IMG/VR virus record: IMGVR_UViG_3300046692_000581
Strand: one strand, 5' to 3'
DNA from: an uncultured virus (IMG/VR IMGVR_UViG_3300046692_000581)
Taxonomy: Duplodnaviria > Heunggongvirae > Uroviricota > Caudoviricetes
DNA: 64,000 nt
Shown: one piece after another, positions 1 through 16,081 of the stretch
Numbering within the stretch: position 1 is the first letter of the stretch
Layout of the letters: every line of letters starts with the position of its first letter
Made by a program: the position numbers and the translations under genes
The notes under the pieces: model-generated
Seen by the model: only the letters and a program-made list of their open reading frames with translations
Told to the model about the DNA's origin: nothing
The model's database searches: none

Positions 1-346
1 TCACGATGAAATTAGGCTCAGCTTCAATCACCAGGATCTTGCCGTCGAATTTTGCACCGGCATTGCGCTCATTGAGATAGAACCAATTCTTGAGTGCGTC
101 AATGGATTCAAAACCGAAAAACCAGTCATCCCCCAGGGCATCGATGTCAATGCCATCATCTTTTGGCAGTGGGCGCCGTTCTTCATAGCCCCGCCATTCG
201 ATGCAGGTGACAGAGCCGATGTCGCTATCAAGCGTGCGCTTGTAGCCGTAACCCTCAGCATCTTCAACGCGATATACAATAGCATTGTTGAAACTGCCGG
301 GATGAATCATGTCCTGAAAAGGACTTTTGCAACGTGAGGAAGCCAT
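1..346 (-). CDS. hypothetical protein, runs off the left edge (phage-type VYRVE...FGFxS...WF motif)
   Basis: Hand translation MASSRCKSPF...NAIVYRVEDAEGYG...WFFGFESIDALKNWF; frame open to position 1. Confidence 0.65.
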   Translation of the reverse strand, partial: MASSRCKSPFQDMIHPGSFNNAIVYRVEDAEGYGYKRTLDSDIGSVTCIEWRGYEERRPLPKDDGIDIDALGDDWFFGFESIDALKNWFYLNERNAGAKFDGKILVIEAEPNFIV

Positions 347-420
347 AATATAAGCCTATATGAATGTAGTTACATTCAGGCCTCCCGCGCATATGATGCG
401 GTGTTCATAAAAACTCCAAT

Positions 421-476
421 AAAAAACCCATCAGCCGCCACTTCCTTCCTGTTATGGAGGGTGTAACGTTGATGGG
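421..476 (-). terminator. intrinsic terminator after tRNA-Thr
   Basis: CCCATCA(A)C...G(C)TGATGGG stem followed by T-run on the minus strand. Confidence 0.6.
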
Positions 477-486
477 CCGTATTGTA

Positions 487-562
<76 letters not shown>

Positions 563-583
563 ATATGTGTTTTGATGGAATCA

Positions 584-612
584 ATTATATTAAGTCGGAA
601 GTAAGAAGTCAA
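584..612 (-). promoter_or_regulatory. sigma70 promoter of tRNA-Thr
   Basis: TTGACT-N17-TATAAT. Confidence 0.8.
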
Positions 613-650
613 TACTTAATTCAACATTTTTATTATTCCGTGCCTTTAAT

Positions 651-766
651 TCGGTGCCCATTACGCCGGGCCAGCGGGCGGTTCCTCGGTACTGTTGCTT
701 CCCTTAATCTCCGTTAGCCGTCATCAAAAATGACGTCGGCCCTTAGAAGCTGGAGACGTTACCGCC
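651..766 (-). ncRNA. candidate structured small RNA
   Basis: Nested helices GGCGGT/ACCGCC, TCTCC/GGAGA, GGCCG/CGGCT, GTCAT/ATGAC, GCCC/GGGC; no credible ORF. Confidence 0.45.
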
Positions 767-782
767 AACTAACTGGTTTAAA

Positions 783-997
783 TTGTAGGCAGTGCAAAAG
801 CGGCCCACTCGGGCGATCTTCAGCGCTCTGCTGATGCGTTAAGCCTCGGCTTGCCTCCCCATGACCTACTCCTAAACCCGTCAAGCGCTCTCAAGGAATG
901 TTTTGGCCATCGAGACGTACAAGCTTACGCAATCCTCATGGGTCGCAATTAACCCCCCCTGGATTAACACTCCGCTACGCTTTTGCACTGCCTACAA
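783..997 (-). ncRNA. candidate structured RNA closed by a 20-bp perfect stem
   Basis: TTGTAGGCAGTGCAAAAGCG (783-802) is the exact reverse complement of 978-997; internal hairpins. Confidence 0.55.
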
Positions 998-1005
998 CTT
1001 ATATA

Positions 1006-1431
1006 TCACTTTGCAACGTGGGTAAAAAACAATTCCACTTCACGACGGATGATGGCGAGTTGATCATCGGTTGGACCTTTGGCCAAAATTTCGGCAATTG
1101 AGGTCCATTCATCTCCATCAGGAAGAAATCTGTCCAGCATAAAGCTGCAAACCGAAATGTCGCTGGCTTTATCCAGCAAAATTGGCATTAGCTCTTCGAC
1201 GTAGGGCAATACAGCTTTATTTGAAATGAGGAAGGCAGGAACCTGTCCATCAAATTCTTTAAGCGCAAAGAGCTTTTTGTCGGCAATCATCATTTTGACA
1301 CTGTCATTCGAAATGCTTAGTTGCTGAGCAACCTCTTTGATGGTCAGAAGGCCTCCATGGTTATCCAGGTAGCTTTGCATAGCCAGCAATGCATCTTTAC
1401 GCTTCTGAAGCTTTTTGGCTTCTAGATCCAT
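1006..1431 (-). CDS. helix-turn-helix DNA-binding protein (excisionase-like HTH, antitoxin-like architecture)
   Basis: LLTIKEVAQQLSISNDSVKMMIADKKLFAL...VPAF. Confidence 0.65.
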   Translation of the reverse strand: MDLEAKKLQKRKDALLAMQSYLDNHGGLLTIKEVAQQLSISNDSVKMMIADKKLFALKEFDGQVPAFLISNKAVLPYVEELMPILLDKASDISVCSFMLDRFLPDGDEWTSIAEILAKGPTDDQLAIIRREVELFFTHVAK

Positions 1432-1545
1432 CTTTCACTCACCTAAATGTTGTTTCACTGGCTGCTACTATGCCACAGGCTGTACCGAAGAAGTTGAAGC
1501 TTGTGCCGACTGTTGATGCATTCACATCAAATCTGCCGAACTGGC

Positions 1546-1809
1546 TTAGGCTTCCGGCAAGCTGCCCAATGGGGTCGTAACGTTCTGAGTCAGGAAATCG
1601 AACTCTTTTTGCTTACCCTGTTTAACCCAGGAGTCCAAACCTAGCCTTCTCAAATCGTCCAGCAATTGATGGCGGCGATTCATCCGAGAGAAAGCGGTAT
1701 CTTTATTGCCGGACTTTACAGATCGACTTGAAACACGCGCAGCTTCACAGCGTTGACGAATTTCGTCTATCGCTGCTGTGTTGCTTGGGCGGATAGCTCT
1801 CACAGCCAT
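1546..1809 (-). CDS. hypothetical protein
   Basis: 87-aa ORF, GGGG SD. Confidence 0.55.
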   Translation of the reverse strand: MAVRAIRPSNTAAIDEIRQRCEAARVSSRSVKSGNKDTAFSRMNRRHQLLDDLRRLGLDSWVKQGKQKEFDFLTQNVTTPLGSLPEA

Positions 1810-1827
1810 TCATTTCCCCTTTGAAGC

Positions 1828-1958
1828 ATGTCCGGAGTTGATTCTCCCTAACTCCCCTTGCCAGAGAGTCACCGCCGTGGGCGATGCCTGTCAATTCAGG
1901 TCCTGTAAAAGTCCTTACGAGACTTTTGGACATATTCGTTTGCAGTTCTCACTGCGAA
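1828..1958 (-). ncRNA. candidate multibranch RNA or structured leader
   Basis: ATGTCC/GGACAT closing five hairpins, preceded by a GCAGT-GAGA-ACTGC GNRA hairpin; TTGACT-N17-TATATT promoter just upstream. Confidence 0.45.
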
Positions 1959-2092
1959 TTCAATATTCAAATAATATAGTCGTGGCGCACATGAAAGTCA
2001 ATATAGTTTTTGATAAAAGCAAATAATGTTTAGTGGTATTGACAAATTGCTCATTTTATGAGAGCATCAGAATCATTTTTTGAGTAATTTTC

Positions 2093-2404
2093 ATGTTGAA
2101 CGGTATCGCTAGTGGGTTTGCCAGCCTGATGGAAGGCTTGGTGGGAATTATGGAGTCTTGTGCGGGGGGCCGCGATGATTACAATCGCATTCTAAAGCAA
2201 AAGTCATGCAAGCCTATGACGGATGCGGAGGCCCTGAATGCCGACGCCAGGGCTCTCGCCGATGACATGGAGGCTATGACGGGCTACCGGCCTACAGGGG
2301 GCTCAGCCAGCTACTGGAAGCCTCGGACGCAGCAACATTACTGGCCAAATGCGCGATCACTTTCGCCGAATCGTGGGCAAATGGACACTCGACATGACGG
2401 ATAA
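2093..2404 (+). CDS. hypothetical protein
   Basis: 103-aa ORF downstream of TTGACA. Confidence 0.6.
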   Translation: MLNGIASGFASLMEGLVGIMESCAGGRDDYNRILKQKSCKPMTDAEALNADARALADDMEAMTGYRPTGGSASYWKPRTQQHYWPNARSLSPNRGQMDTRHDG

Positions 2405-2588
2405 GGATGATTCTTCCAGGAAACAAAAGACTTGGGATGAGCTTAGGCTCGAAATATTGACTGCTGGCTTGCCTAGGTCTCGGATAACAGTGACTATGCC
2501 TCGGCATCCACCGGCCAGTGTTTTTAGATCTACGTGTGACGGTATTTATCCTGTAAGAGATTATTTCGTTGAGCGAAATAAAAGTTAG
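2394..2588 (+). CDS. hypothetical protein
   Basis: ATG overlapping the end of the previous ORF. Confidence 0.4.
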   Translation: MTDKDDSSRKQKTWDELRLEILTAGLPRSRITVTMPRHPPASVFRSTCDGIYPVRDYFVERNKS

Positions 2589-2728
2589 CCCCCTCTCCTC
2601 GAACGGGTTTAGTGTTTCACTCCCGCTAGTTGGCGTAATGGCAACTAGCGTCTCAACTAAGCATTCTCCGCACGTCTGAACTAGTAATGCCGACCTCTTG
2701 GCAACTTATCGAGCATAAAATCTTTGAT

Positions 2729-2896
2729 TTATTCCCCAGCTTTCTCGGTTGTAGCTCGTTTTTTTCTGACTGTAGCATCCTGGGCAAACTCAACAATTTG
2801 CACGATTAGCAAAAACGCTGCAAAAAAGAAAATTCCCAAGGCAATTCCACAGGCTGACGCAACTATCCGCAGAGATAATTTCAATGTTGTCCACAT
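2729..2896 (-). CDS. small membrane protein (55 aa)
   Basis: MWTTLKLSLRIVASACGIALGIFFFAAFLLIVQ...; AAGGA SD. Confidence 0.5.
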   Translation of the reverse strand: MWTTLKLSLRIVASACGIALGIFFFAAFLLIVQIVEFAQDATVRKKRATTEKAGE

Positions 2897-2928
2897 AACA
2901 CATGTCCTTTATTTTTATTTTAGCAAAG

Positions 2929-2966
2929 AAAAACACCGCCAGTCACTAGTCTTGGCGGTGTTTTTT
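2929..2966 (-). terminator. bidirectional intrinsic terminator ending the tRNA operon
   Basis: AAAAACACCGCCA...TGGCGGTGTTTTT. Confidence 0.8.
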
Positions 2967-2968
2967 GT

Positions 2969-3056
2969 TGGCGGAAGCATAGAGATTCGAACTCTAGAAC
3001 CTGTTACAGTTGACGGTTTTCAAGACCGTTGCCTTAAGCCACTCGGCCATGCTTCC
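2969..3056 (-). tRNA. tRNA-Ser(UGA)
   Basis: GGAAGCATGGCCGAGTGG...CTTGAAA...long variable arm...TTCGAATC...GCCA. Confidence 0.97.
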
Positions 3057-3194
3057 ATAAGCTTAGAGCTTCAAATTAGTGAGGCTCTTTATATCTTTAA
3101 GTTGCAAGTTTGTCAGCAACTTAATTGCTCTTACGAGCGTGTAAATCGAGTCTATCTGCTAATCAGCCCATTACTGGTGATAGACTCTAAAAAA

Positions 3195-3269
3195 TGGTGG
3201 AAGGAACGGGGGTCGAACCCGTGCCTTTCGGCTTATGAGGCCGGAGCACTACCTTTATGCTACCCTTCC
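3195..3269 (-). tRNA. tRNA with CAU anticodon (elongator Met or Ile2)
   Basis: GGAAGGGTAGCATAAAGGTAGTGC...CTCATAA...GGTTCGACCCC...TTCCACCA. Confidence 0.9.
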
Positions 3270-3308
3270 ACAGGGGTTAAAACATTAACTAATAAACAAC
3301 TAAGGTGT

Positions 3309-3382
<74 letters not shown>

Positions 3383-3455
3383 GCTATACATCTAAGCGCC
3401 TGTATTGCTCTGTTTCAACAGCCTAAAGCCTCTGCTCTAAGCTGCTACTAAAATC

Positions 3456-3529
<74 letters not shown>

Positions 3530-3586
3530 TTATCTAGTCCGTTTACTTTCTGCTTTCGCTTTCAGTATCTCGCCCTGATGAGAGAT

Positions 3587-3615
3587 ATAATATCCAAAGT
3601 AGCCTACCTTGTCAA
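3587..3615 (-). promoter_or_regulatory. sigma70 promoter of the Gly-Gly-CAU-Ser tRNA operon
   Basis: TTGACA-N17-TATTAT. Confidence 0.8.
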
Positions 3616-3725
3616 CACCCCTTTAGAAATAATTTGCTGAAAAGGTTAAGATTTTTCAGATTTGTTAATTTATAGCTGGATAGTCGATTACTATTGATTA
3701 TTAAGCGAGAAATGGTTAAAATTGG

Positions 3726-3969
3726 GAGGTCGGGGCACTGTGGATCCTGGCCAGACCTCGTCGCCGTGCCAGGAAATTTGTAAGTGGCGGCGTAAGGTGA
3801 GAGCAGTGCCTCTGACACTTCTTTATTGAGACGATTTCGCTCGCCCTCCTACGCCTTTGTGCCTCCTTCATGCCCTGCCCCGCTGCTTTCTGGACTTTCT
3901 TCGAGCGGCCTCATCATTAATTTTCATATTCGCCCATGAAATAAAAAACCACCGGTTGGGGTGGTTTTT
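3726..3969 (+). ncRNA. candidate pseudoknotted sRNA
   Basis: Promoter TTGATT-N17-TAAAAT (3694-3722); four interleaved helices 3726-3812; terminator 3943-3969. Confidence 0.45.
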
Positions 3970-3999
3970 GCGGTGCAATTAGTATTGAGCTGACTGAGG

Positions 4000-4461
4000 C
4001 TACTGGAATTCTTTGGCGTGTTTCAGCAGTCTCTGCATGGCCGTCAAGCCCTCCATCTCTTCTGGCATGTGCGGATTGGCTTCTCGGAGTCCAATCAGCA
4101 GGCGCTCAGCGCGATCTGGCACCTCACGCTTTAGAATGATCAGCGCTTGATCACGGGCATCGTACCAGTGCTTGAGTGAATTTCGTTCGGAGTAAGATGT
4201 GCGGAGGATCGAAGCAAGGCATGGAAAATTGGATTTTACTTCAAGGATGGCCAGAAGCATTTGGTCCATCGCGTCGGCCTTTTTCAACTCCTTACAATCT
4301 TCAAGATAATACACGGAAAGTCGAGAAAATTTCCGACTCGCGTTTGCTTCAGGCGATTGAGCCAAGCGCAAGATCTCGGCGATGACAACGTCATCCGGCA
4401 AATTTTCGTAATCAAATTCGATCAACGGATCGTTCACATTGATCATCGGTTGATGTGCCAA
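4000..4461 (-). CDS. hypothetical protein
   Basis: 153-aa ORF followed by terminator. Confidence 0.7.
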   Translation of the reverse strand: MAHQPMINVNDPLIEFDYENLPDDVVIAEILRLAQSPEANASRKFSRLSVYYLEDCKELKKADAMDQMLLAILEVKSNFPCLASILRTSYSERNSLKHWYDARDQALIILKREVPDRAERLLIGLREANPHMPEEMEGLTAMQRLLKHAKEFQ

Positions 4462-4865
4462 GTGACGGGCATTGGCGCTGTGTTGTTCAGTTCTTTTTCG
4501 TCCTGTTCTTTTGACAGCAGGTAGGCGCAGGAACGCACTCGATGCAAATTGTTTTCAAGGAAGCATTCAATGTCACCCCTAGCATCCATGGCATCGAGAT
4601 CATCCTGAAGTTGTGGGCATGACCAATGATCGTCATTGAGCTTCGCAATCTCTGCGCCAGTCAGGCGGTAGTAAGCAAATACCATTCTATGTTCAGTGCT
4701 GGAATAAAAGGCATTGTGGTGAATCCAGCGAAGGAGCCATGCTTGGCGGGCCTCAGGTGTCATGTAATCTTCGGGATTGGCGAACGCCGTTCCAATTTGC
4801 ATGTCTGGCACGAAGGGGGCGCAAGTCAGACCTACGGCATGACCAGAATTGAGTTGTTGATTCAT
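4443..4865 (-). CDS. hypothetical protein
   Basis: 140-aa ORF, AGGTG SD, promoter upstream. Confidence 0.7.
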   Translation of the reverse strand: MNQQLNSGHAVGLTCAPFVPDMQIGTAFANPEDYMTPEARQAWLLRWIHHNAFYSSTEHRMVFAYYRLTGAEIAKLNDDHWSCPQLQDDLDAMDARGDIECFLENNLHRVRSCAYLLSKEQDEKELNNTAPMPVTWHINR

Positions 4866-5029
4866 TTTTCACCTGAATTGACGCAAACGAACGATTACCA
4901 CATGAGGAAGGCATATTTTTCAGAGTCTTCCCTTGTTTTTCATAAATTATAGTATTGCTATGGAATTTATGATTGTCAATTATTAATGAGGTGGCGAGGA
5001 CCAGTCTCAAAATCAACCCACTGGGCTAT

Positions 5030-5422
5030 TCAATCCCCTTTAAGGGAAATGCGTTCTTCCCTATTCGCAATGGTTTCCAGGGATTTTTGCGACAGATGTT
5101 CTTTGATGAAGACATCAAACCATTCCAGGGCATGATCACTAAAATTATGATCAGAATAATCGGTTGTAATTCTCAGGTGTTTTCGGAAGCCACGGCCTGC
5201 AACCGAAAAGGAGTCAGAAAGCTCATTCAAAAGCCCTACTGGGTCTCCATTCTCCAGTTTTGTAATATTCAGCCCCAGGCACTGGAGAATGCATGTCCGG
5301 ACTTCACATAGATCTTCGCTGACTTTGAGTTGTTTCTTCACCTCTAGGAGTTCAGACTCAAGTTCCTTTATGCGCTTATTTTTATGATTGAACATACCTT
5401 TATCCTTGGGTTTGGTTTTCAT
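5030..5422 (-). CDS. hypothetical protein
   Basis: 130-aa ORF with N-terminal coiled coil. Confidence 0.65.
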   Translation of the reverse strand: MKTKPKDKGMFNHKNKRIKELESELLEVKKQLKVSEDLCEVRTCILQCLGLNITKLENGDPVGLLNELSDSFSVAGRGFRKHLRITTDYSDHNFSDHALEWFDVFIKEHLSQKSLETIANREERISLKGD

Positions 5423-5441
5423 ATATTAACAGACTTAAAAC

Positions 5442-6205
5442 AAAAAACCCCAGCGTCTCCCGACGTTGGGGTTTTTGCGATCAAACGCGGAATTTGCCGA
5501 AACAGCGAATTATCTTTGCTCTACTACTGCGCTGAGGTGGTTTTTACTCATGCCCCGCGTCAATACGCTGGATATCCATGCTCTGTCAAAAGCATGGGTA
5601 GACTCGTGCTGTAGAACGAGCCAGCTCTAGTGGAAGATTTGACGATCTTCAGTAATCTGGCTTTGGTTCACTACACCAAAACTATGTCCTTGCAGTAATT
5701 CAGGCTCATCCTTCGCTTCGGAACATCGCAGGAACTCCATCATAATTGGAGGACCATTGAATACGAAGGTTCTGAGACAGCTTTCGCTGAATCCACCCAT
5801 CGGTGGCTCTCTATTGCACGCCTGAATTGCAGTTTCTGCTCTGAGCCGCGTGGTAGGGATAACGTAATCACCCCCTCACATACACGCGTTATTGATGCTA
5901 TCTCAACCGTCAGCTCCCAATGTGTCGGCATTGAGTAGAGCACGGACTACAGCCCGCCTGCTGACTTGTGCTGCATCCAGGTGACTAGCCTGAATGCTGT
6001 AGTTCGGATCATGCTCGCACCAACAGCACTACCTAGCCCTATTATCACAACCTTTCATCGGACGGGCAGATCCAGATGCTATCACCCCATTCGGGGTGCA
6101 CTGCACAGCTTTGCCGTACAGCCAGTTGCGTGTCGTGAGAATTGGAAATTCTTTCGTGGGCCTTTCACCCATTTAACCGACTTGAACGGCTCGTCAGACG
6201 ACTTG
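5442..6205 (-). ncRNA. candidate large ornate non-coding RNA (~765 nt)
   Basis: Own promoter and terminator, no credible ORF, many hairpins, GNRA loops and long-range helices. Confidence 0.75.
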
Positions 6206-6211
6206 AATTAT

Positions 6212-6240
6212 ATAATAAGCAATGAATTGAATATTGTCAA
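6212..6240 (-). promoter_or_regulatory. sigma70 promoter of the large RNA
   Basis: TTGACA-N17-TATTAT. Confidence 0.8.
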
Positions 6241-6268
6241 CTGTTTTGTTTTCTTTATCGATAAACAT

Positions 6269-6523
6269 TTAGTTGTTGTTGCTGAGTTTCTTGATAGCGG
6301 CTTTGACGTCCTTGCCGATACGTCGCATATCACCATTCAATCCCCCACTATATTGCTCAAAGGGGGGCGCTTTCAGGCTTGAGATTGGGCTCTCCGGCAT
6401 TTCGATCTGCTGTTTCGCATCTGCACTGGCTCGCTCAATAAGCTTGTTCGCCTCATCGAGAGGATTTGTGTTGGGACTAATGCTCAGTAATGAAGAGAAT
6501 GCCTTTAAGAATTCAGCGAGCAT
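6269..6523 (-). CDS. hypothetical protein
   Basis: 84-aa ORF overlapping the stop of the upstream ORF. Confidence 0.55.
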   Translation of the reverse strand: MLAEFLKAFSSLLSISPNTNPLDEANKLIERASADAKQQIEMPESPISSLKAPPFEQYSGGLNGDMRRIGKDVKAAIKKLSNNN

Positions 6524-7244
6524 CTGAATGATTTGCCGTTGTTTTGGAGAGAGTTTCGTAAAAATCGCACACGCTCTTGATGGTGCCGTAATTGGCTTTC
6601 ACCCAAGCCAGCGACTGAGTGATCGCAATTGCAACGAAGCTTCTATAGGCCAGGGAGTCTTCATACGAGAGGGTGTTTGAAATAGATGTTGTTGAAAAGG
6701 AAAAATCTAGGCTGTTCCAAATCGAAACAGGCTTGCCTTCTTCTTTTTCCAGAGCATTGGTTAGGGCATTCAGGGCAACCGGCCCGGCCTCGTCTCCAAA
6801 CTCAGCGATGGGATTTGACTTCAAGGTCATGAGTCTAACGAGTCTATTGCGATGGTTTTTGAGTGAATACTTGATAGAAAGGTGTCGACCATCCACATTA
6901 GTAATCTGAGGAGCCCTTTGCAGAACGGCCTGAAGGATCTGTAGCGTATCTATCATTTTGGAGTTCGATGGCCATGCGCGATGCTCAAGCACAAAATCCA
7001 GTAGTGTTCTGGCTGGTTTCGATATCTCAAGGCGAGCGCGCTCTGCATCTTCTACATGCTGATCGTAGAATTTTTGCAGCTCATCACCAAAATGCATGGA
7101 GACATTGCGGGCTTTGTAAGTCGCTACAACGCACTGAAGCCATAAAATCAGTAAAATTGGGCTCAGATTAAAGGCGTGAGGCGCCAGGGCAAAAACAATG
7201 GCGCCGTTTACATTTTTGTGAGCAAGGAGTTTATCGTCAATCAT
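6513..7244 (-). CDS. hypothetical protein
   Basis: 243-aa ORF. Confidence 0.65.
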   Translation of the reverse strand: MIDDKLLAHKNVNGAIVFALAPHAFNLSPILLILWLQCVVATYKARNVSMHFGDELQKFYDQHVEDAERARLEISKPARTLLDFVLEHRAWPSNSKMIDTLQILQAVLQRAPQITNVDGRHLSIKYSLKNHRNRLVRLMTLKSNPIAEFGDEAGPVALNALTNALEKEEGKPVSIWNSLDFSFSTTSISNTLSYEDSLAYRSFVAIAITQSLAWVKANYGTIKSVCDFYETLSKTTANHSDAR

Positions 7245-7303
7245 CGCGTATGGCTCTGTTTTATTCAGAGAATTTTATCACGCCGACAGGAATGCCGCTC
7301 ATT

Positions 7304-8101
7304 TTAATCGGGTATTGAGCCCATATTGTCGAGGTCAATAACAAAGCGAACGTCGAATTGATCATTCGGGTAGCTTGGCGTTCCCCGTGGGTTATTCAGG
7401 ACCCATTTGTCTGCCAATTTATAAAAAGCACTGTTGTGCATATGACCGTGCGCCCACAGTACAAAATCCTGATAGTGGAAAATTGCATCCAGGTCAGAAC
7501 AAAACATGTAGTTGTGCTCATTCCCTTGAAAATGTTCCGCCACACTGGAATGGGTCGGCGCATGGTGGGTCAGCACCACGGTTTTCCCCTCGAAAGGCTT
7601 GCTCAGTTCGTCCTGAATGAACTGTTTGGATTTCAAGTGCTCAGAGAGAATGAAGTCGGCGTTGATGTGATCATCGCCCTGATCATTTTCAATGTACATG
7701 TAATCCTTTACCACGCCCTGCCCTTGCATCATTTTGAGTGGGCTTTGGTTGAAGAAATCGGTCCACAACGTCGCGCCGATGAAGCGAACGCCTTTGTGAA
7801 TCCACACCTCATTGTCCAAGAAGATAATGTCGCTATTCTTAGCGGCGATCTCGCGCCATTGAGCCCTCACTTTCGCCAAGCTGCTTCCATAGAACTCATG
7901 GTTACCCAAAAGGACGATGGTGGGTCTAACCGAAGACGGACTGAGGATGGGCCTTCCCTTGCAAAGGGTCTCTATGAACTCAAGGCCATTGATTCCTTCA
8001 TGGGTATCACCCAATACAATACTGACGTCCGCATCGATGTCTTGAGGGGCTTCCAGAGGCCAGGAATCCAGGTGCAGGTCGCTGATGATATGAAGCTTCA
8101 T
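7304..8101 (-). CDS. calcineurin-like metallophosphoesterase
   Basis: SDLH, LGD, GNHE, THHAP, HGHMH motifs. Confidence 0.92.
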   Translation of the reverse strand: MKLHIISDLHLDSWPLEAPQDIDADVSIVLGDTHEGINGLEFIETLCKGRPILSPSSVRPTIVLLGNHEFYGSSLAKVRAQWREIAAKNSDIIFLDNEVWIHKGVRFIGATLWTDFFNQSPLKMMQGQGVVKDYMYIENDQGDDHINADFILSEHLKSKQFIQDELSKPFEGKTVVLTHHAPTHSSVAEHFQGNEHNYMFCSDLDAIFHYQDFVLWAHGHMHNSAFYKLADKWVLNNPRGTPSYPNDQFDVRFVIDLDNMGSIPD

Positions 8102-8103
8102 AC

Positions 8104-8562
8104 TTAGTCCGTTCGCAGTGTCTTGTTGATGACTTTGCTCATGAACACGGCCAGATCAGGTGTCTCGTGAACGGAAAAGCCAATTTTATTTTGAATCATG
8201 GCATCTATACTAATGTCGATTTTGCCTTCGTTGAGCGATGCAATCACGCCTTCACTCTCAGGGGCCTGACGACAGTTGAGTGTCAGCAGCTCTATCAACT
8301 CAACCACGTCTTTATTGCGCAGACGATACTGGTTGGTTTGAGGTGGGTTTGTACTCTGGTCAATCGCTATCGAGTATCCAGAAAGGTCGAGTGGCCCAAC
8401 AGCGCTCAGGCAATCATCGCAGGCGACATTTTTATGAGCCATGCCTTTGAAGGTCTGCATTTCCCACATGTGCCCGCCTACATCTTTCCCGCAAAGTGGG
8501 TGACTGAAATCGCCGGGGGTGGAGACCATCAGGTGATTTTTTGCCGCTACGCCACAGCCCAT
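8104..8562 (-). CDS. hypothetical protein
   Basis: 152 aa, GGAGG SD, H/C and CxxC residues. Confidence 0.65.
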   Translation of the reverse strand: MGCGVAAKNHLMVSTPGDFSHPLCGKDVGGHMWEMQTFKGMAHKNVACDDCLSAVGPLDLSGYSIAIDQSTNPPQTNQYRLRNKDVVELIELLTLNCRQAPESEGVIASLNEGKIDISIDAMIQNKIGFSVHETPDLAVFMSKVINKTLRTD

Positions 8563-8607
8563 AAGGCCTCCGCTAATTAAACTGAGTCAATGCGACTGAG
8601 ATTGTAA

Positions 8608-9006
8608 TCAAACCGTACCCGAAATCAGGTGATTCTTCAGGCGCTCTTGCATTTGCGCCTTTTGCTCTTCGGTGAATTTGGCAAAGCTGGCGGCTGAAAC
8701 TAGCAGGGTCAGCCATGAGCCGCGATACTTACCCAGATAGCCTTGGCGCTTGGCGGGTTCGCCTATTGCAAGCTCAGTAATGACCATCGGGTGATCACCA
8801 AGGGCCTGAGTATTAGCTGGCGCTTCAACAGCAGTGGTTGCAACCACAACGGCGGCGTCTTCCTGGGCGATTACTGGAACTTCATTTTTTACGATTTCAA
8901 GATGGGGTTGAGGCTTTACTTTTGACTTTGCTTTTGGCGTTTCTTGAGATTGTGCGATGGCTGCAATCGCAGGTGATTCGAGAAACATATCGAATTGGTC
9001 AAACAT
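8608..9006 (-). CDS. hypothetical protein
   Basis: 132 aa, GGAG SD, promoter upstream. Confidence 0.7.
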   Translation of the reverse strand: MFDQFDMFLESPAIAAIAQSQETPKAKSKVKPQPHLEIVKNEVPVIAQEDAAVVVATTAVEAPANTQALGDHPMVITELAIGEPAKRQGYLGKYRGSWLTLLVSAASFAKFTEEQKAQMQERLKNHLISGTV

Positions 9007-9108
9007 GCTCGAAATCTCCGGTGAGCCTTTTAAAAACGTTCGAATTTGTGCTAATTACTATGACAAGAATACTAACTTATGTCAATAATAATGACGACTA
9101 ATTTGTGG

Positions 9109-9534
9109 TTAGATGCGGCTTACATTGATTATTTGTGTTGCTGGGAGGCTTTTCTGGGAGAAAACGGCATTCACCAGGGCCAATGATTGTTGTGCGGATA
9201 GGCCGGTTTTTTCAATTCCATCGATTTTACGCCACCACTGCCGCATCGCTATTTCAGTGTGCAATTGGTGCTTTTTCTTAATCGGCTTGATCGGATCAAT
9301 AAAGGAGTCGCAATCCCATTCCAAATCCGCCCACGCAGCTTTGATGAATAGAATGCACATCTCACCGCCATGTTTCCGATGCTTTGCACGGGCGTAATAC
9401 AGGGCGGACTCCTGACAATCGGTGAGGTAGACCGACCCCCGAATTTCCTTTGTTTCCAACATTGCCTCATAGGCTTGAATGGTGGTGCCGTGCATCAAAA
9501 CAACGTCCTGCGCTGACACGTCAGCCCAGTCCAA
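9109..9534 (-). CDS. putative ADP-ribosyltransferase-fold protein
   Basis: LMHGT...SVYLT...ALYYA motif spacing; TTG start with GGAG SD. Confidence 0.5.
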   Translation of the reverse strand: MDWADVSAQDVVLMHGTTIQAYEAMLETKEIRGSVYLTDCQESALYYARAKHRKHGGEMCILFIKAAWADLEWDCDSFIDPIKPIKKKHQLHTEIAMRQWWRKIDGIEKTGLSAQQSLALVNAVFSQKSLPATQIINVSRI

Positions 9535-9588
9535 TCGCTCCAGTGGGTGCTTTGTGGTCGCTCGCCTTCCTTTGCTTCAATCAATAGA

Positions 9589-9903
9589 TTATGGCCGTGT
9601 AGCATTGCCGATCAAGTTGTCCAGATGCTCACAGGTCTCTACGCAGGAGGACAGGTCTTTGCGTGTCGCATTACCGCCCTTGGACACCTTGTCGTGAAGT
9701 TCTCGGGCAAAGCTGGTGCCTACGTGCTCGGGAAACGGTGTTCCCTTCAGTGTTGTCAGTTGTGCTTCTTTAGTCAGCAGGGCGTCCAGGCAGTATTGCG
9801 TGTCACGCGGCTTGATTTTTCCACCCTGATTGATGTGATCCCACAGGCGACGTACTTGAGCTGTATTTCCGCGCCAGTCATTTTGTGCAGTTGGAATGTT
9901 CAT
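9589..9903 (-). CDS. hypothetical protein
   Basis: 104-aa ORF with an internal dyad repeat. Confidence 0.65.
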   Translation of the reverse strand: MNIPTAQNDWRGNTAQVRRLWDHINQGGKIKPRDTQYCLDALLTKEAQLTTLKGTPFPEHVGTSFARELHDKVSKGGNATRKDLSSCVETCEHLDNLIGNATRP

Positions 9904-10006
9904 TTTATGCTCTCTTAAGATAATAAGTGTTTAATCTACTGGCTGTGTCAGACACATCGTGGGCGTATTATGCCAATATCGACAAAAATGTCAAATTCAC
10001 AAACTA

Positions 10007-10843
10007 TTATGGCTTATCTGAGCATTGATCTTCGCGAACTGCTCCATCTGTCGTTCTGATTAGCCAGTGAAGCGGTATGGTGCCGTAGACCTTTGTTCGT
10101 GGGGGCTGATCAACGGACCATGGGGCAAAATTAACTTCAAGTTCAGCTCGCCCGATATATGCGATGTTGTTGTCAAATTCGTAGATAGGATAGCAATCTG
10201 CGTCCACAAAGTAAGTGTCTCTACTCGGCGTTGAATCAAAATGGCGAATCGCACGAAACCGCAGTGTTGTTCCACTTTCAATGATCGTTTCCTTATGCGC
10301 ACTTTTCACTATCAAGTGCTCCCCTTCCGGAATGATAGCTTCACCAAACGCTTGACGAAAATGGGCAGATGTCATTTCCCTTTTAAATTTTGAATCACGA
10401 ATAAATGATAGCTCGTAGTAGTCTTCGATCCAACCTTTTATTTGGACAATTCGGTTATCATCATTGGCTCCATACGCAAAGCGCCCACCCAAAAGGCTAT
10501 CCATCACAATCAATGCCTGTACAGTTCTTGACGCCTCAATAAAGTCCATTCCACGCATAAATCGAAGGACACTTTCATAGGCATATTTGAATCCAGAGCC
10601 AGCGCAAAAGGACGCTAGCTTTTGCAATTGATTCGCTAGCAAATCTCTATTCGAGGCGTGAACGATTGGCAGTCCTTCGCGGAGCAGTTGAGACACGAAC
10701 ATGGCGTATTCGATGAAGCTCAATTCCCCAATTTTATTGTGCGGTTTCAGGACATAGTTGTAGAAGTGACCGTCATATTCAACGGCGAGAGAACATTTAG
10801 AAAAATTGAGATGAGTACCGACCTGCATGAATTTATCGACCAT
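10007..10843 (-). CDS. hypothetical protein, paralog of 10901-11713
   Basis: Shared MQVGTHLxFSKCS, LLREGLP, SRTVQAL, LRFRAIRHFDSTP, GRAELEV. Confidence 0.8.
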   Translation of the reverse strand: MVDKFMQVGTHLNFSKCSLAVEYDGHFYNYVLKPHNKIGELSFIEYAMFVSQLLREGLPIVHASNRDLLANQLQKLASFCAGSGFKYAYESVLRFMRGMDFIEASRTVQALIVMDSLLGGRFAYGANDDNRIVQIKGWIEDYYELSFIRDSKFKREMTSAHFRQAFGEAIIPEGEHLIVKSAHKETIIESGTTLRFRAIRHFDSTPSRDTYFVDADCYPIYEFDNNIAYIGRAELEVNFAPWSVDQPPRTKVYGTIPLHWLIRTTDGAVREDQCSDKP

Positions 10844-10900
10844 AATTTTTGCTAAATTGTAGGGATTATATTTAATTCGTCATTCGTGATGCCATCAGTC

Positions 10901-11713
10901 TTAATCATCTGAATTAAAGGCTGGCCCGTCCGTGGTTTTTGTAATCCAGTGCAGTGGCAGGAATCCGAATGCTGTTTTATCGTTTGTCTCACCAAAGCAG
11001 GATGGATCAAAAATCACTTCAAGTTCAGCTCTTCCAAGATAGAATGTGTCTTTATCAAAGTTACAAACAGCATGACAATGCATGTCAACGCCACGAATAT
11101 ATTGGGTTGGCGTTGAATCAAAATGTCGGATGGCGCGAAAGCGTAGCATTGAGCCGCTTTCCAGTTTTGTTACTTTGTCGGCGGCTTCCACCTTTAGATA
11201 CTGACCTTCGGGAATAATGGCTTCGCCGTAGGCTTCATAAAAATGCGCAGTGGTAATTACTGCTTTAAACCGCGATTGGTGAATAAACATTAGATCTCGA
11301 TAATTTTCTCTAAACCCTTTGACTTTTATTCTCCCTCTTATGGTTTCATGGCATTCGTAGGCATAGCCGCCGCGCAGAAGATCCTCCATCACCATCAACG
11401 CCTGGACAGTCCTGGATGTCTCTATGAAGTTGCTATTGCAAGAAAATCGATAGAAGTTATCATCAACGTAATCAAGTCCTGATCCGGCGCTAAAGCAAGC
11501 AAATTTGATCAATTGGCTGGCCAGCAATTCTCTGTCAGCTTCGAGAACGACAGGCAATCCTTCGCGAAGCAATTCAGCCACGAACAAGGCTGATTCGAAG
11601 AAGGTGGCTTTGTCCAAATTATGATGTGGATGTATTGCATAATTATTGTACTTACCGTCATTTTCAACGATGAAAGAGCATTTCGAAAAATCGAGATGAG
11701 TGCCGACCTGCAT
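10901..11713 (-). CDS. hypothetical protein, paralog of 10007-10843
   Basis: Tandem paralog. Confidence 0.8.
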   Translation of the reverse strand: MQVGTHLDFSKCSFIVENDGKYNNYAIHPHHNLDKATFFESALFVAELLREGLPVVLEADRELLASQLIKFACFSAGSGLDYVDDNFYRFSCNSNFIETSRTVQALMVMEDLLRGGYAYECHETIRGRIKVKGFRENYRDLMFIHQSRFKAVITTAHFYEAYGEAIIPEGQYLKVEAADKVTKLESGSMLRFRAIRHFDSTPTQYIRGVDMHCHAVCNFDKDTFYLGRAELEVIFDPSCFGETNDKTAFGFLPLHWITKTTDGPAFNSDD

Positions 11714-11868
11714 GAATTTTCAGCCGTAATGATTGTGGAATTGTCGATATTATATTTAATTTATGGCTTTTGTCAATTGAAATGCGATCCTTGAGATCTT
11801 TGTCGCGAGTGACTTTCCAATGGCAACTTTTTGGGATAGATTACAAGCGATATCAGGGAGGTTTCTCA

Positions 11869-12423
11869 ATGCCACAAGCACAAGCTAAAATCAGCATTAA
11901 AGACAAAATTATAACTGAATACGCGCAGTGGACGGTGTTGTCTGCTGTTCGTCAGGGATGCCCTATTCGTAGCAGAAAGGATGTGTATCCAGCATTGTGT
12001 AAATTGGACTTTTCATCACTCTTTGATGAAAGCAAGGGGGCGATCCTTTCTGATGAGTTTGATGCATGGCACGCATCGGCACTTGAAACCTTGACCAAGA
12101 TTCCGCGTATGGAGTCGCATTTTGGTTGGGCGGCAAAGATGGTAAATGTGTACCTAAAAACGGCGGCGTACATCAGTGGTGCCGGACGCCCCGGACTAAG
12201 TGAGTGCATTCATCCGCCCTTTGACGACGGGCTGTGGAAAGGATTGCGCGCTGAGTTTTCCAGTAGCAATCCCGCCATTGTGGCGCGTAGTCATGCTATC
12301 ACCAAAATTAGTGGCATTCAGTCACTTGATTCCTACAACTCCATGATTGATGCGATGAGAGAGCTGGCCAAGGTGCATGGCTGCTCCCTTATTGAGCTTG
12401 AGCAGTTTTGGTTGAAGGGCTAG
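11869..12423 (+). CDS. hypothetical protein (GxAAKxxNxYLK...HPPFD, HhH-like)
   Basis: GGAGG SD before ATG 11869. Confidence 0.7.
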   Translation: MPQAQAKISIKDKIITEYAQWTVLSAVRQGCPIRSRKDVYPALCKLDFSSLFDESKGAILSDEFDAWHASALETLTKIPRMESHFGWAAKMVNVYLKTAAYISGAGRPGLSECIHPPFDDGLWKGLRAEFSSSNPAIVARSHAITKISGIQSLDSYNSMIDAMRELAKVHGCSLIELEQFWLKG

Positions 12424-13093
12424 TGACGCGTTCAAATCCAAGGGCTTCAAGTTCCGCAATGGCAATTGTGCTGCGCGGATCCAGCGCCCATGTTTTGGAT
12501 TCCTCAATGAAACGTGCCTTTCGTCGACTTGCGTCATACCGATTCGTGTAGGGCACGATAAAATGCACCAGTTTCTTGGGTTCAAATACGCCCAGTTTGG
12601 TAAGTCTTTCAATGACCTTTTCGTCGTTCTCGTCCACCCACAACGACTTTTGAATGGGTGACCATCGGGCCCCTGCTTTTTTGGCGAGCGGAAAATCAAA
12701 TTCGGTCGTTTGAAACAGGCGCCGTCCTGCAAAAGGATCCTCGTGAGGAATGCCTGTAAATTCGGGTGGTTGTACCCAATCCCAATAGTCATCATCGTGG
12801 GTTGATGGGTGGATTGCTTTATTCACCAAAACGCCCTTTTTCAATCGATAGGACGTGCCATCTGCTGTTGTATAGGTATTGGGTGGAGGCCCTTTAGGAG
12901 GCGTCACGCTTGATACGCAAATCACTTCTCTTGCATTGGTTCGGATCCAGAAGTTACTGCGCCGACGCAGCTCATAGGTGATCTGGGCAATGGTCAGATC
13001 GCAAGCAATGACCTCGGTGTCCAGGGAGATTTTTGTGTAATCAGAAGGCGCGATATCACTGATGCTCATTGAGCAGATACTCCGGCAATCCAA
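12389..13093 (-). CDS. DUF5710-like domain protein (two copies)
   Basis: AKKAGARWSPIQKSLWV and VPYTNRYDASRRKARFIEESKTW. Confidence 0.6.
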   Translation of the reverse strand: MDCRSICSMSISDIAPSDYTKISLDTEVIACDLTIAQITYELRRRSNFWIRTNAREVICVSSVTPPKGPPPNTYTTADGTSYRLKKGVLVNKAIHPSTHDDDYWDWVQPPEFTGIPHEDPFAGRRLFQTTEFDFPLAKKAGARWSPIQKSLWVDENDEKVIERLTKLGVFEPKKLVHFIVPYTNRYDASRRKARFIEESKTWALDPRSTIAIAELEALGFERVTSPSTKTAQAQ

Positions 13094-13571
13094 ACAGTTT
13101 AAGGGTTGTTTTCATGCGCTCTTTTACGGCTGGATTGTGCTGTTTGGCATGAGTCGACAAGATCAGTTGCAGCCTTGCCTGTATCGGTTTGTTGTAGAGC
13201 ACCAGCTCGCGGAGGACCTGAGCAACGAGGAAAAACATCGCGTCATCGAGATGCTTGTCGCTATTCTCTGATGGGGGATTTGAGGCAGCTGAACTTATGA
13301 TGTTGGGGCTTTTACTTGCCAAAAGTTTAAACATTTCGACGTCGATCTTCCAATCGAGCAAGACGTCAGGCTCATCGTATACGGACAGCGAGTCAAGCAC
13401 GCTGGGTTTCTGGTCGCTCAGCAGCGATTCTTTGAGCTTATCCAACATGCAGGAAATCATGTACGTCAAGCCGCACGGTGGTAGCGGAGTGAATATGCCA
13501 ATTTCACTTTTCAGATAAGTGATCAGGACGTCACTGGTCGATCTGAGATGGAAGAAATCCGATGCGTACAT
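13056..13571 (-). CDS. hypothetical protein
   Basis: 171-aa ORF in operon. Confidence 0.65.
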   Translation of the reverse strand: MYASDFFHLRSTSDVLITYLKSEIGIFTPLPPCGLTYMISCMLDKLKESLLSDQKPSVLDSLSVYDEPDVLLDWKIDVEMFKLLASKSPNIISSAASNPPSENSDKHLDDAMFFLVAQVLRELVLYNKPIQARLQLILSTHAKQHNPAVKERMKTTLKLFGLPEYLLNEHQ

Positions 13572-13583
13572 GAGCCCCGCCCA

Positions 13584-14120
13584 TTACAAGAGACTGGAGG
13601 CAATAATCAGGCGAGCCAAGTTCTTGGCGTCTACCATAGCGTTGTGCTGCTTGCCTTCGAATTGGAGGTCATATTGATCCATTGCCTTGACCATGCTCAA
13701 TCTGCCGCCGTTATGACGGTGTTTTACCATGAAGACCAAAGCGGCGTTGATGGAGTTGGTGAATGGTGAGAAGAAGTCCTTTGTGGTGCATTCTTCATCA
13801 AGGATTGCGGCATCATTGCCCCAGGCGACGTAAGTTTTATGGGCGCCACCAAACTTGTTCTTGATGGACTCAAGTACCATTTCAAGCGGTTTGCCCTGCG
13901 TATCTACTCGTTCCTGGGTCAGACCGGTGAGCTTAGTGCAAAATTCTGAAACCAGATCGTTCTCTGGTTTTACGATGTGCTCGGCTGTTCGCAGAATCTT
14001 GCCTGTGGTCAGGCACAGTTCGGCCAGTCCAATGGAGATCACCTCTCCCGTACCTTTTTCACGATCATCCCAGCAGCACATTTCAAGATCGAAACAAACA
14101 ACTTTGGTGTAGTCAGACAT
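13584..14120 (-). CDS. DEDDh 3'-5' exonuclease (KapD/ERI-1-like)
   Basis: FDLEM...EVISIG...WGND...HNAMVDA. Confidence 0.9.
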   Translation of the reverse strand: MSDYTKVVCFDLEMCCWDDREKGTGEVISIGLAELCLTTGKILRTAEHIVKPENDLVSEFCTKLTGLTQERVDTQGKPLEMVLESIKNKFGGAHKTYVAWGNDAAILDEECTTKDFFSPFTNSINAALVFMVKHRHNGGRLSMVKAMDQYDLQFEGKQHNAMVDAKNLARLIIASSLL

Positions 14121-14213
14121 GGTTACCACCGGCACTGAGGGGCATGCGCCCCTATAGTCAAAAGCCCGGTTAGGGCCGGGCGTTAATTTAGTTGATTCTC
14201 AAGCCCCATTGGC

Positions 14214-14687
14214 TTACTGCTCAGTGCCATTGGCTTTAGCTTTTTCATCGGCATCGATGATGGCTGCGCCTTGTTTTCGCAGCCAATAAATCAGATCGTT
14301 GCCTGCGCAGAACGAAAGATTGTGCGTCCCCTCCTCGTCTTCTGGATCTTCCTTGGTTTTTTCCTTGAAGATTTCGACGAGGCGAATTTCCAGGTCAACC
14401 GACGATGCTACTTTGCGAGCCTGACGCCCCTCAATCACGTAGGAGCTTCGTTCTTCAGAATCTCCGGGAGTAAATGCAGGGAGTGATTGAATCCACTCGT
14501 AGAAGCTCTCAAGGGCCACAAGACCAAGCACCTCAAAGCAGTTTTGATCATCTGGATCAAGGCGATTGTAATCGCCATAGAGCGTTCTGATCTTCTGATC
14601 TGGACTGACAAAATACTCGACGTGAATGGGTGCTGTTCCGTCTGGGGGCAAGACCCACGCTTTTTCCGATTCTGGATATTCCGTCAT
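14214..14687 (-). CDS. hypothetical protein
   Basis: 157 aa, AGGAG SD. Confidence 0.7.
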   Translation of the reverse strand: MTEYPESEKAWVLPPDGTAPIHVEYFVSPDQKIRTLYGDYNRLDPDDQNCFEVLGLVALESFYEWIQSLPAFTPGDSEERSSYVIEGRQARKVASSVDLEIRLVEIFKEKTKEDPEDEEGTHNLSFCAGNDLIYWLRKQGAAIIDADEKAKANGTEQ

Positions 14688-14688
14688 C

Positions 14689-15039
14689 TTATTGCTCCTG
14701 GCTTATGTTGGTGCCAATGCAGGTCGACGACCCGATCTTGAAGTCCACTACTGCTGCATCTTTCAGGATTTCAGATACGTCAGAAATAGCTTCCAATTGT
14801 GCCTTGAGGTTACGCACTTCCGCTTCGGCCTTATGGCGCATGTATTTTTCGTTGTGAAGCGCATTGCCCATATAAGCCATGACGACTTCAGCGTTCACAC
14901 GATGGTGCTTGATGTTGAACGAAGGGGGGTGGTCACCCGTTGGGCTGTCCACCGTTCCGATGTCGTATAGTCCATCGTCACGGTGCTCTACCCGAATAGG
15001 GTTTGGCAGATCGGGGTCACCATCAATAATACGAGCCAT
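14689..15039 (-). CDS. hypothetical protein
   Basis: 116 aa, AGGAG SD, promoter upstream. Confidence 0.7.
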   Translation of the reverse strand: MARIIDGDPDLPNPIRVEHRDDGLYDIGTVDSPTGDHPPSFNIKHHRVNAEVVMAYMGNALHNEKYMRHKAEAEVRNLKAQLEAISDVSEILKDAAVVDFKIGSSTCIGTNISQEQ

Positions 15040-15136
15040 CTAAATCTCCTGGTTATTTATTTAATATGCCACTAATCATAATAACTGTCAATATCAATGT
15101 CAGTCCGTATAATTTTGGTCCCTTTGAAGGGCTCGA

Positions 15137-15391
15137 TTAGCTAAATCCACACTTAAAATTGTAGAGATCTTGTATCAGTGCCATTCGATCCTTAGGCAGT
15201 TTGTAGTCAATGCTTTCGTCTGCAACCTCAAACGCGATGGGACACATGCTGGCCCCCAAATCACGGATGGCATCTGCCAGCTCATCGGCATTGGGCGTAA
15301 GGACGCGAATGGTGCGCTCCTGGACTCCGTCGTCCTCTGCGTTTTGCCGGGTGTATTCCACCTCAAACACTATTCCTGCGGAATTTATCAT
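15137..15391 (-). CDS. hypothetical protein
   Basis: 84 aa, AAGGGG SD. Confidence 0.6.
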   Translation of the reverse strand: MINSAGIVFEVEYTRQNAEDDGVQERTIRVLTPNADELADAIRDLGASMCPIAFEVADESIDYKLPKDRMALIQDLYNFKCGFS

Positions 15392-15542
15392 TGTTGCCCC
15401 TTATCGGAAAATGAATGTTTTTTCGCAATTTCATATTTCAAATGTCACGAAATTATTGCATATGGCTTCAACCCTCCCACAAGAGCTAGTGGGAGGAGGT
15501 GCTTCATTGGGGGCTGTTCGTTTTCCCACTGCTTGCACCATT

Positions 15543-15841
15543 AAAAAAAGGCGAAGCCACCGGTTAAAGTAATTTCGCCTTCTCGTATCGCCCGCTGGAT
15601 CATCAATATCCTTTTACGCACTGCAATTCCCATTGCTGGAAATTCTGGCGGATTATCTACAAAGATGGGACTCCTACTAGCCCGGTCGGTGTTTCACTTA
15701 AGAAATTCAGCAGCCAGGACGGCTCGATAGAGATGTTCATCATACAGCTGTCGCCGCTAATCTTCAATGATTAGTCTAAATTATCTGTAGCAGTATGGCG
15801 TTTCGTGCACATCCCTCTCTTTTTGGATGACAGCGTATGAT
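15543..15841 (-). ncRNA. candidate structured ncRNA (~300 nt)
   Basis: TATAAT just upstream, 13-bp 5' helix, possible pseudoknot, intrinsic terminator 15543-15581. Confidence 0.6.
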
Positions 15842-15879
15842 CTTCATTATAATATTGCGGTAAATAGGAGTATCACATC

Positions 15880-16044
15880 TTGAAAAAGCCAGAAGTTCTC
15901 GAAAGCACCCCGTTTTCTCGGTTTTTCCGTAGCGCCTCGGAAGAGGAGAAGCGTCGTGTCTACAAGCAGGTAATTGAGCGTTCAATCAAGGCCCAGCTGG
16001 ACGTGATTGAGTGTGCAAAGGCAATGCCTCCTAAGCAAAATTGA
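15880..16044 (+). CDS. small protein of the STPFSxFxRxASxxEKxxVY family
   Basis: TTG start, AGGAG SD; MKKPEVLESTPFSRFFRSASEEEKRRVYKQVIERS (below the ORF-track cutoff). Confidence 0.65.
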   Translation: MKKPEVLESTPFSRFFRSASEEEKRRVYKQVIERSIKAQLDVIECAKAMPPKQN

Positions 16045-16081
16045 ACGCCAATTATAATAACAAATAAAATGGTCACCAAAA

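Follow-up and report, generated by a model that had tools for sequence, protein, structure and literature searches.

Large, structured RNAs to which no function has been assigned are few, and GOLLD, ROOL, OLE and raiA have recently been found to form unexpected RNA-only assemblies. ROOL is an RNA of the rumen or of Firmicutes. Stable phage RNAs that are transcribed with or beside transfer RNA (tRNA) genes are also familiar from T4, where species 1 and 2 (RNAC and RNAD) are about 140 nucleotides (nt) long and are processed from a tRNA precursor. The subject of this report is a minus-strand locus at positions 5442-6240 of a 64,000-nt stretch of DNA (the window) from the uncultured-virus record IMGVR_UViG_3300046692_000581. 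We believe, at a probability of roughly 80%, that it is a gene for a functional RNA, non-coding and of a new class. The evidence supports a highly expressed, stand-alone non-coding RNA of GOLLD or ROOL size in a phage-like region. No catalogued RNA family matches it, and a new kind of large functional RNA is therefore the probable reading. An earlier note on this DNA had proposed either a divergent member of the GOLLD and ROOL class or a new class of large RNA; its observation is confirmed, and its interpretation proves right in kind, a new large RNA, and wrong on membership and several structural details.

In the structural literature, GOLLD is a large non-coding RNA of phages and prophages, with many members above 800 nt; its gene commonly lies near tRNA islands, beside tRNA genes or around them, and its expression increases during phage lysis; its 3' region is universally conserved, its 5' region less so, and it assembles as a homo-14-mer nanocage (PMC12286853). 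The same source describes ROOL (Rumen-Originating, Ornate, Large) as an RNA of phages and prophages, near tRNA islands and with no known protein partner, that forms an RNA-only cage of eight chains through kissing loops and A-minor contacts, and it notes that Rfam contains profiles for GOLLD, ROOL and OLE (PMC12286853). OLE and raiA are large and exceptionally highly expressed bacterial non-coding RNAs with near-invariant stretches (PMC3413148, PMC12968392).

Set beside these systems, the RNA described here resembles GOLLD in its length of 675-764 nt and its very high RNA level; its region looks like phage accessory DNA, and a tRNA cluster lies 1.9 kb away. Unlike GOLLD, it matches no Rfam model, its tRNA genes are not adjacent but set off by three protein genes, and its conserved half, judged from close relatives only, is the 5' one, where GOLLD is described as keeping the 3' one. 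It shares with OLE and raiA a very high expression, a large size and a near-invariant sequence stretch; those, however, are Gram-positive chromosomal RNAs, whereas the carrier here is a phage-like element rich in orphan genes, and here too there is no Rfam match. Compared with ROOL, the general size and the phage-like setting are similar, whereas the Rfam model does not match and the habitats differ, being soil, peat and freshwater here and the rumen or Firmicutes for ROOL. Compared with RNAC and RNAD of T4, the RNA is five times larger and has its own promoter and terminator.

Rfam assigned no family to the locus at gathering score, and at that score GOLLD has no hit anywhere in the window. 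At an expect value (E) of up to 10 and with permissive filters, the interval 5300-6400 gave no match to GOLLD or ROOL and four matches at chance level (E 0.37-4.5, with scores well short of gathering), two of them on the terminator hairpin. No Rfam match was obtained for RNase P RNA, tmRNA, group I or II introns, OLE, raiA, 6S or SRP, and ARAGORN found no tRNA or tmRNA within the unit; the earlier note was right to see no signature of RNase P, tmRNA or these introns. Membership as modelled in GOLLD, ROOL, OLE, raiA, RNase P, tmRNA or the introns was rejected on the lack of any Rfam match, with ARAGORN added for tmRNA. One may still ask whether this is a diverged GOLLD or ROOL that lies beyond the reach of narrow Rfam models, since size, phage-like setting and nearby tRNA genes fit both classes as PMC12286853 portrays them. 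Yet neither model matches at E 10 with permissive filters across 1.1 kb, and it is the 5' part that is invariant here, albeit judged from close relatives only. We consider such a hidden kinship very improbable; membership of GOLLD or ROOL, one of the two alternatives in the earlier note, is not supported, and we retain the other, a new class of large RNA.

The search for homologues that the earlier note had called for found no match to the RNA by blastn in phages or in plasmids; relaxing the phage search to E of up to 10 gave 32 records, which align with the terminator only. Exact or purine/pyrimidine-coded (R/Y-coded) words from the conserved parts had 0 matches in viral_contigs, and word scans of metagenome_contigs returned 0 matches and then 4 chance hits. 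For the flanking proteins, viral_contigs yielded no relatives; a 243-amino-acid (aa) neighbour (6513-7244, minus) has no tblastn match in phages and finds only itself among 5.8 billion proteins; and the open reading frames (ORFs) of the region, used as bait for contigs of relatives, found none. Full-text literature searches, judged from listings and abstracts, returned no description of the RNA.

Architecture and transcripts

The earlier note had placed a promoter and an intrinsic terminator around about 765 nt, and this bracketing holds. The promoter at 6240-6212 (minus) is the top site within 4500-7500, and the span from promoter to terminator is 764 nt on the minus strand. The two terminator arms, 5443-5457 and 5462-5476, are 15 nt each and 93% complementary, and on the minus strand they are followed by a U-run to 5442. 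A simple terminator scan reported this hairpin on the plus strand only (5458-5471); an A.C mismatch in the stem is probably why it missed the minus-strand form. With the tRNA region excepted, the unit is the largest stretch of the window without a credible gene. The features of the locus and its surroundings are as follows.

6212..6240, minus: sigma-70-type promoter, TTGACA-17-TATTAT, 11 of 12 matches
~6205, minus: predicted transcription start, inferred from the -10 position
6117..6205, minus: 5' leader of the predicted primary transcript, 89 nt, holding the T-arm-like letters; without RNA contig cover
5442..6116, minus: body of the abundant RNA, ~675 nt; RNA contigs, and a fold z-score of -3.72 for 5477-6116
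5954..6114, minus: almost invariant 5' domain, 161 nt; at most one difference in run X2
5697..5828, minus: best-supported predicted long-range helix, AAUUCAGGC/GCCUGAAUU, enclosing a multi-hairpin domain; ensemble probability and sub-domain fold
5442..5476, minus: intrinsic terminator, stem CCCCAACGUC/GACGCUGGGG, loop GGGA, U-run; p>0.7 in the fold ensemble
5030..5422, minus: next gene downstream, 130 aa, starting 20 nt past the terminator
2969..3615, minus: tRNA cluster Gly, Gly, Met, Ser, with its own TTGACA-17-TATTAT promoter at 3615

The tRNA cluster lies 1.9 kb downstream of the RNA gene on the same strand, and the setting near it that the earlier note had described is borne out at that distance.

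A look-up of public sequencing runs for the locus returned ten rows from nine studies, two of them DNA runs, one perhaps that of the source sample, and eight metatranscriptomes from peat, soil and freshwater. Four RNA runs from four studies were compared with 4500-7500 at 80% likeness, and all statements on habitat are drawn from these four; X5, X6, X7, X9 and X10, with small shares, were excluded.

X2, peat: contig of 658 nt, 5473-6114, depth 745
X3, soil: contig of 650 nt, 5442-6089, depth 23
X4, soil: contig of 231 nt, 5886-6116, depth 2.4
X8, freshwater: contig of 151 nt, 5924-6074, depth 3.1

In all four runs the RNA contigs are confined to parts of 5442-6116, at an identity of about 95% or more; the X2 contig has 15 further unlike letters within the terminator. 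The X3 contig ends at 5442, the last U of the terminator, and a 3' end at this position is well supported. The flanking gene 4443-4865 appears in X2 as two small contigs of about 90% identity with depths of 2.1 and 3.2, and a relative of the element is therefore present in that run. The RNA is more than 200 times deeper than this gene in X2, a contrast beyond what DNA carry-over can produce. The downstream gene region 4904-5408 and the leader 6117-6205 are without contig cover in all four runs; missing cover at 4904-5408 and at 6117-7500 was not counted as silence, and only the depth contrast in X2 is used. Contigs from two studies (X2 and X4) terminate at 6114 and 6116 without loose ends, and the leader may be absent from the contigs through trimming, variability or an assembly break. 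It is in this leader that the earlier note had seen a T-arm at the 5' end of the RNA. The letters do exist at 6191-6173, but the hairpin occurs in no predicted fold, no tRNA model matches it and the leader has no cover by the abundant RNA, so that this claim is not supported.

An arrangement of this kind could also be that of a long leader or attenuator of the gene at 5030-5422 and onward to the tRNA cluster, with the terminator serving regulated read-through and the RNA being a terminated by-product. The next gene does start 20 nt past the U-run, with no promoter-like site of its own in 5423-5500, and the promoters at 35749 and 36746 likewise stand a few hundred bases ahead of the next ORF of at least 70 aa. 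Several observations speak the other way: 764 nt far exceeds known leaders, most other strong promoters of the window have an ATG within 30-60 nt, the locus matches none of the riboswitch or T-box models (Rfam, E of up to 10), and a promoter-like site at 4979-4951 could serve genes further down. In addition, the RNA exceeds coding DNA in conservation and attains a depth of 745, with no contig on the downstream gene. We regard a leader as improbable. The product of 5030-5422 has no Pfam or PHROG family and no relative in viral_contigs; we take this gene as context and claim no link between it and the RNA gene.

Coding potential and conservation

The earlier note had found no credible ORF in the unit, and we agree. 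The longest minus-strand ORF is at most 67 aa, and the differences among relatives are unlike the pattern of a protein gene. Sorted by position modulo 3, the 30 listed differences of X2 in the RNA fall 9/10/11, which is no codon rhythm; nearly all of them are common to X3, and both long contigs (X2 and X3) carry a 1-base insertion after 5813. The neighbouring gene 4443-4865 provides the contrast, with seven of its eight listed differences at third codon positions (p 0.003) and six of the eight synonymous. The differences of the relatives also bring two stop codons into the minus-strand ORF 5740-5943 and one each into the plus-strand ORFs 5384-5614 and 5466-5630; the plus-strand ORF 5892-5984 (30 aa) takes three differences and gains no stop.

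Not only do these differences lack the signature of a protein gene, they are also fewer than in coding DNA. The RNA is better conserved than the adjoining gene (31 of 642 nt differ, versus 28 of 275 in 4443-4865; p 0.005), chiefly in its first 161 nt. At 5954-6114, at most one of 161 nt differs in X2, versus 30 of 481 elsewhere in the RNA (Fisher p 0.002); compared with the 28 of 275 in the neighbouring gene, p is 3e-5. This block is the part common to all four runs compared, and it holds no minus-strand ORF above 47 aa.

It is overlapped on the other strand by a 138-aa ORF (5966-6382, plus), which runs antisense across the promoter and reaches into the upstream gene. Half of this ORF alone lies under the RNA contigs, it has no Pfam match, and a search with its RNA-covered part as bait found no relative. 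An overlapping plus-strand ORF cannot explain 0-1 changes in 161 nt where the adjacent coding DNA differs by about 10%. Frame 2 of the plus strand has just 3 stops in 265 codons over 5442-6240; the 1-base insertion and the new stops of the relatives disrupt it and its translation is unlike protein, and its openness is probably a by-product of base composition.

The same comparisons bear on the proposal that the transcript is a messenger RNA encoding a small protein or several. The most plausible candidate is the 57-aa ORF at 5627-5800 (minus), which was called as a gene by the source pipeline and is open in X2, with four synonymous and three non-synonymous differences. Its ATG start, however, is ATT in X3, and its product finds only itself among 5.8 billion proteins. 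The ORF takes up less than one fourth of the transcript and falls within helices of high probability; the other difference-bearing ORFs gain stops or are frameshifted, the differences have no codon rhythm, and the most conserved part, 5954-6114, offers no minus-strand ORF above 47 aa. We judge a small-protein messenger to be very improbable, and return to the RNA itself as the product.

Predicted fold

The whole minus-strand unit folds at -274.6 kcal/mol, with a z-score of -4.91 (20 shuffles). With the terminator left out, 5477-6116 folds at -221.2 kcal/mol on the minus strand, with a z-score of -3.72 and none of 20 shuffles as good, so that the earlier expectation of folding better than shuffled controls is upheld. 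Four neighbouring 764-nt coding stretches gave z-scores of 0.02, 0.39, 0.45 and -0.81, and the folding signal is therefore local to the unit. Over 5477-6116 the minus strand is the more stable of the two (-221.2 versus -208.0 kcal/mol). The fold ensemble contains sixteen stems with p>0.7, among them five of the seven local hairpins that the earlier note had picked out (CACCCC/GGGGUG, CCACC/GGUGG, CAGC/GCUG, GAAGAU/AUCUUC and CCAUGCU/AGCAUGG) and the helix 5825-5820/5705-5700; the other two hairpins, CUCGU/ACGAG and UUUGGU/ACCAAA, occur in the minimum-free-energy (MFE) structure only.

Three long-range helices had also been proposed. The complements exist for all three, but only 5828-5820/5697-5705 is favoured in the ensemble, with p up to 0.96 in the 640-nt construct and 0.37 in the 764-nt one, and it is found in the sub-domain fold too. 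The helix 5942-5934/5517-5525 reaches p 0.23 and 0.00 in the two constructs, and 6006-5996/5943-5953 at most 0.01 and 0.12. In the favoured helix, the change C5820>U in relatives retains a G-U pair, and a second change, C5829>U, would on our reading replace a C.A mismatch with A5696 by a U-A pair and lengthen the helix; we offer both changes as leads and not as proof. The invariant domain is predicted to form a 9-bp hairpin with a 7-nt loop, CUAGUCA, that contains the self-complementary CUAG. Such a loop is likely to arise by chance, and its possible use as a kissing-loop site is a lead only.

At the same time, a number of points weigh against our interpretation. Assembled contigs cannot reveal the strand, the true ends or the level of an RNA, and the contig ends give a weak hint of a 5' end near 6115, with the leader trimmed or strain-variable. 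The plus strand also beats its own shuffles, with z-scores of -4.17 and -2.77. Taken singly, four sub-domains have z-scores of -0.23, -0.30, -1.02 and -2.08 (200 shuffles), the first value being that of the leader 6117-6205 and the second that of 5930-6116, which holds the invariant domain. The global MFE structure is unstable, with a base-pair distance of about 200-265 between reference and mutant. Seven differences shared by X2 and X3 fall on pairs of p>=0.8 (640-nt/675-nt fold), where four keep the pair as a wobble and three break it, about as chance would have it, and there is no truly compensatory double change among the differences of the relatives. On the minus strand the natural variant preserves energy and structure only slightly better than 150 random mutants do (fractions 0.19, 0.13 and 0.07), and on the plus strand it does no better (0.35, 0.86 and 0.20); neither result is significant, and tests with the natural differences have little power. 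X2 and X3 represent one lineage at about 5% divergence, and relatives that are about 95% identical or more yield no informative covariation; the 'ornate' fold is an unproven prediction. Beyond the RNA itself, we infer a giant phage as its carrier from accessory genes only, with no capsid, terminase or other phage hallmark gene in the window, and a function as scaffold or cage is proposed by analogy alone.

Some of these points feed a further alternative, in which the abundant RNA comes from the plus strand, as an antisense or convergent transcript, or was copied from the conserved RNA of another organism. Contigs without strand information and a plus strand that outfolds its shuffles would suit a transcript of the opposite strand, and so would the T-runs that flank the hairpin 5442-5476 on both sides and the sparse stops of plus-strand frame 2. 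The sole plus-strand promoter-like site in 4500-7500, however, lies at 6677 and is misplaced for such an RNA, whereas the minus strand has the 11/12 promoter and an RNA contig that ends at the last U of its terminator; the plus-strand ORFs 5384-5614 and 5466-5630, moreover, acquire stops, and a frame shift follows from the 1-base insertion. A foreign origin is countered by the invariant block, of which an exact 20-mer gives 3 chance hits in 185,579 species genomes, none in an RNA-like context, and by the pieces of the neighbouring gene in X2, which place a relative of the element in the very run where the RNA is deepest. Both forms of this alternative appear to us distinctly improbable, and we continue with a minus-strand RNA made by the element.

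Carrier element and possible role

In the protein database the genes of the window belong to a contig of 876,603 bp; were the carrier a phage, it would be an exceptionally large one. The window is packed with short minus-strand genes, mostly without any family. Those with an assigned family comprise three metallophosphoesterases, two RNase T-like exonucleases, two AlkB-like oxygenases and Ham1, and to these are added an RNA-repair HAD domain, an AAA ATPase and five tRNAs. Such families are typical of large-phage accessory regions, and one phosphoesterase has its best phage matches in jumbo phages, with an identity of about 34%. The carrier may instead be a megaelement that resembles a plasmid, or an island in a chromosome. 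Compared by megablast, 44000-64000 matched nothing in E. coli genomes and plasmids, and 1-20000 matched phages in its tRNAs only. At the end of the window, where G+C rises to 57%, a transposase-like ORF (62490-63968, minus; PHROG 506, E 3e-6) may mark an insertion or the edge of the element.

Several of the assigned genes come in pairs, all on the minus strand: NinI-like phosphoesterases at 24398-25201 and 25267-26073, RNase T-like exonucleases at 13584-14135 and 22018-22581, and AlkB-like oxygenases at 23177-24028 and 60534-61181. The HAD domain, at 47132-47695 (minus), is that of 'Swiss Army Knife' RNA-repair proteins. Paired repair genes, HAD domain and tRNA genes together make up a nucleic-acid repair theme. 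Within the tRNA cluster, two tRNA-Gly(UCC) genes are adjacent (3309-3382 and 3456-3529, minus), and a separate tRNA-Thr (487-562, minus), with its own promoter at 612, is 94.9% identical to its counterpart in Pseudomonas phage PaBG.

The promoter of the RNA gene has many counterparts in the window, where 22 sites have at least 11 of 12 matches (20 on the minus strand), versus 1.26 expected from shuffles; seven of the 22 are perfect 12/12 sites. Examples on the minus strand are 54900, 45787, 41005, 36746, 35749, 29370 and 11776. These strong promoters precede genes and tRNAs, mostly with an ATG within 30-60 nt, a pattern that resembles the early promoters of lytic phages. Three strong promoters (35749, 56224 and 9994, minus) have no start codon in the first ~60 nt, and a G+C-rich, hairpin-like stretch follows the one at 56224; more small RNAs or long leaders may lie at these three places. 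Elsewhere, 59673-59815 (minus), downstream of the gene 59854-60390, is a full-length Rfam match to sraL at 41 bits (gathering score 39) that ends in a terminator-like hairpin. The sraL model describes an Hfq-binding small RNA of enterobacteria (Rfam), and its match, odd in a soil element, may be a chance one driven by the terminator.

The events at the RNA gene may be pictured as follows. The host sigma-70 RNA polymerase would start near 6205 and stop at 5442, giving a primary transcript of 764 nt, of which the first ~90 nt would then be removed, or would vary. A species of ~675 nt would accumulate through compact folding or protein binding, and the molecule would work as RNA. As to how it works, our tentative first guess is a structural scaffold, or a particle that assembles itself, produced in the course of infection, by analogy with GOLLD and ROOL. 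Ranked second, and in our view unlikely, is that it draws off a host RNA-targeting factor as a decoy or sponge, a guess made because tRNA and RNA-repair genes surround the RNA gene. A more ambitious proposal, which we hold to be doubtful, is that this RNA is the founding member of a new large-RNA class and the most abundant transcript of giant phages or phage-like megaelements that live on soil and freshwater bacteria; its invariant 5' domain would drive the assembly of a particle of RNA alone or of RNA and protein, adding a third architecture to those of GOLLD and ROOL. The tRNA and RNA-repair programme of the element might be what this particle serves.

Whatever its mode of action, the locus is a strong candidate, well suited to experiment, for a large phage-associated RNA of a new class. 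It comes with expression in natural communities already in hand, as a discrete piece of ~650 nt that is hundreds of times deeper than a neighbouring gene, and it is short enough for in vitro transcription and direct study. If the reading as a functional RNA gene of a new class is true, it would add a soil and freshwater branch to the large RNAs borne by phages, and would provide a handle on the role of such RNAs in an element with many genes for tRNAs and nucleic-acid repair.

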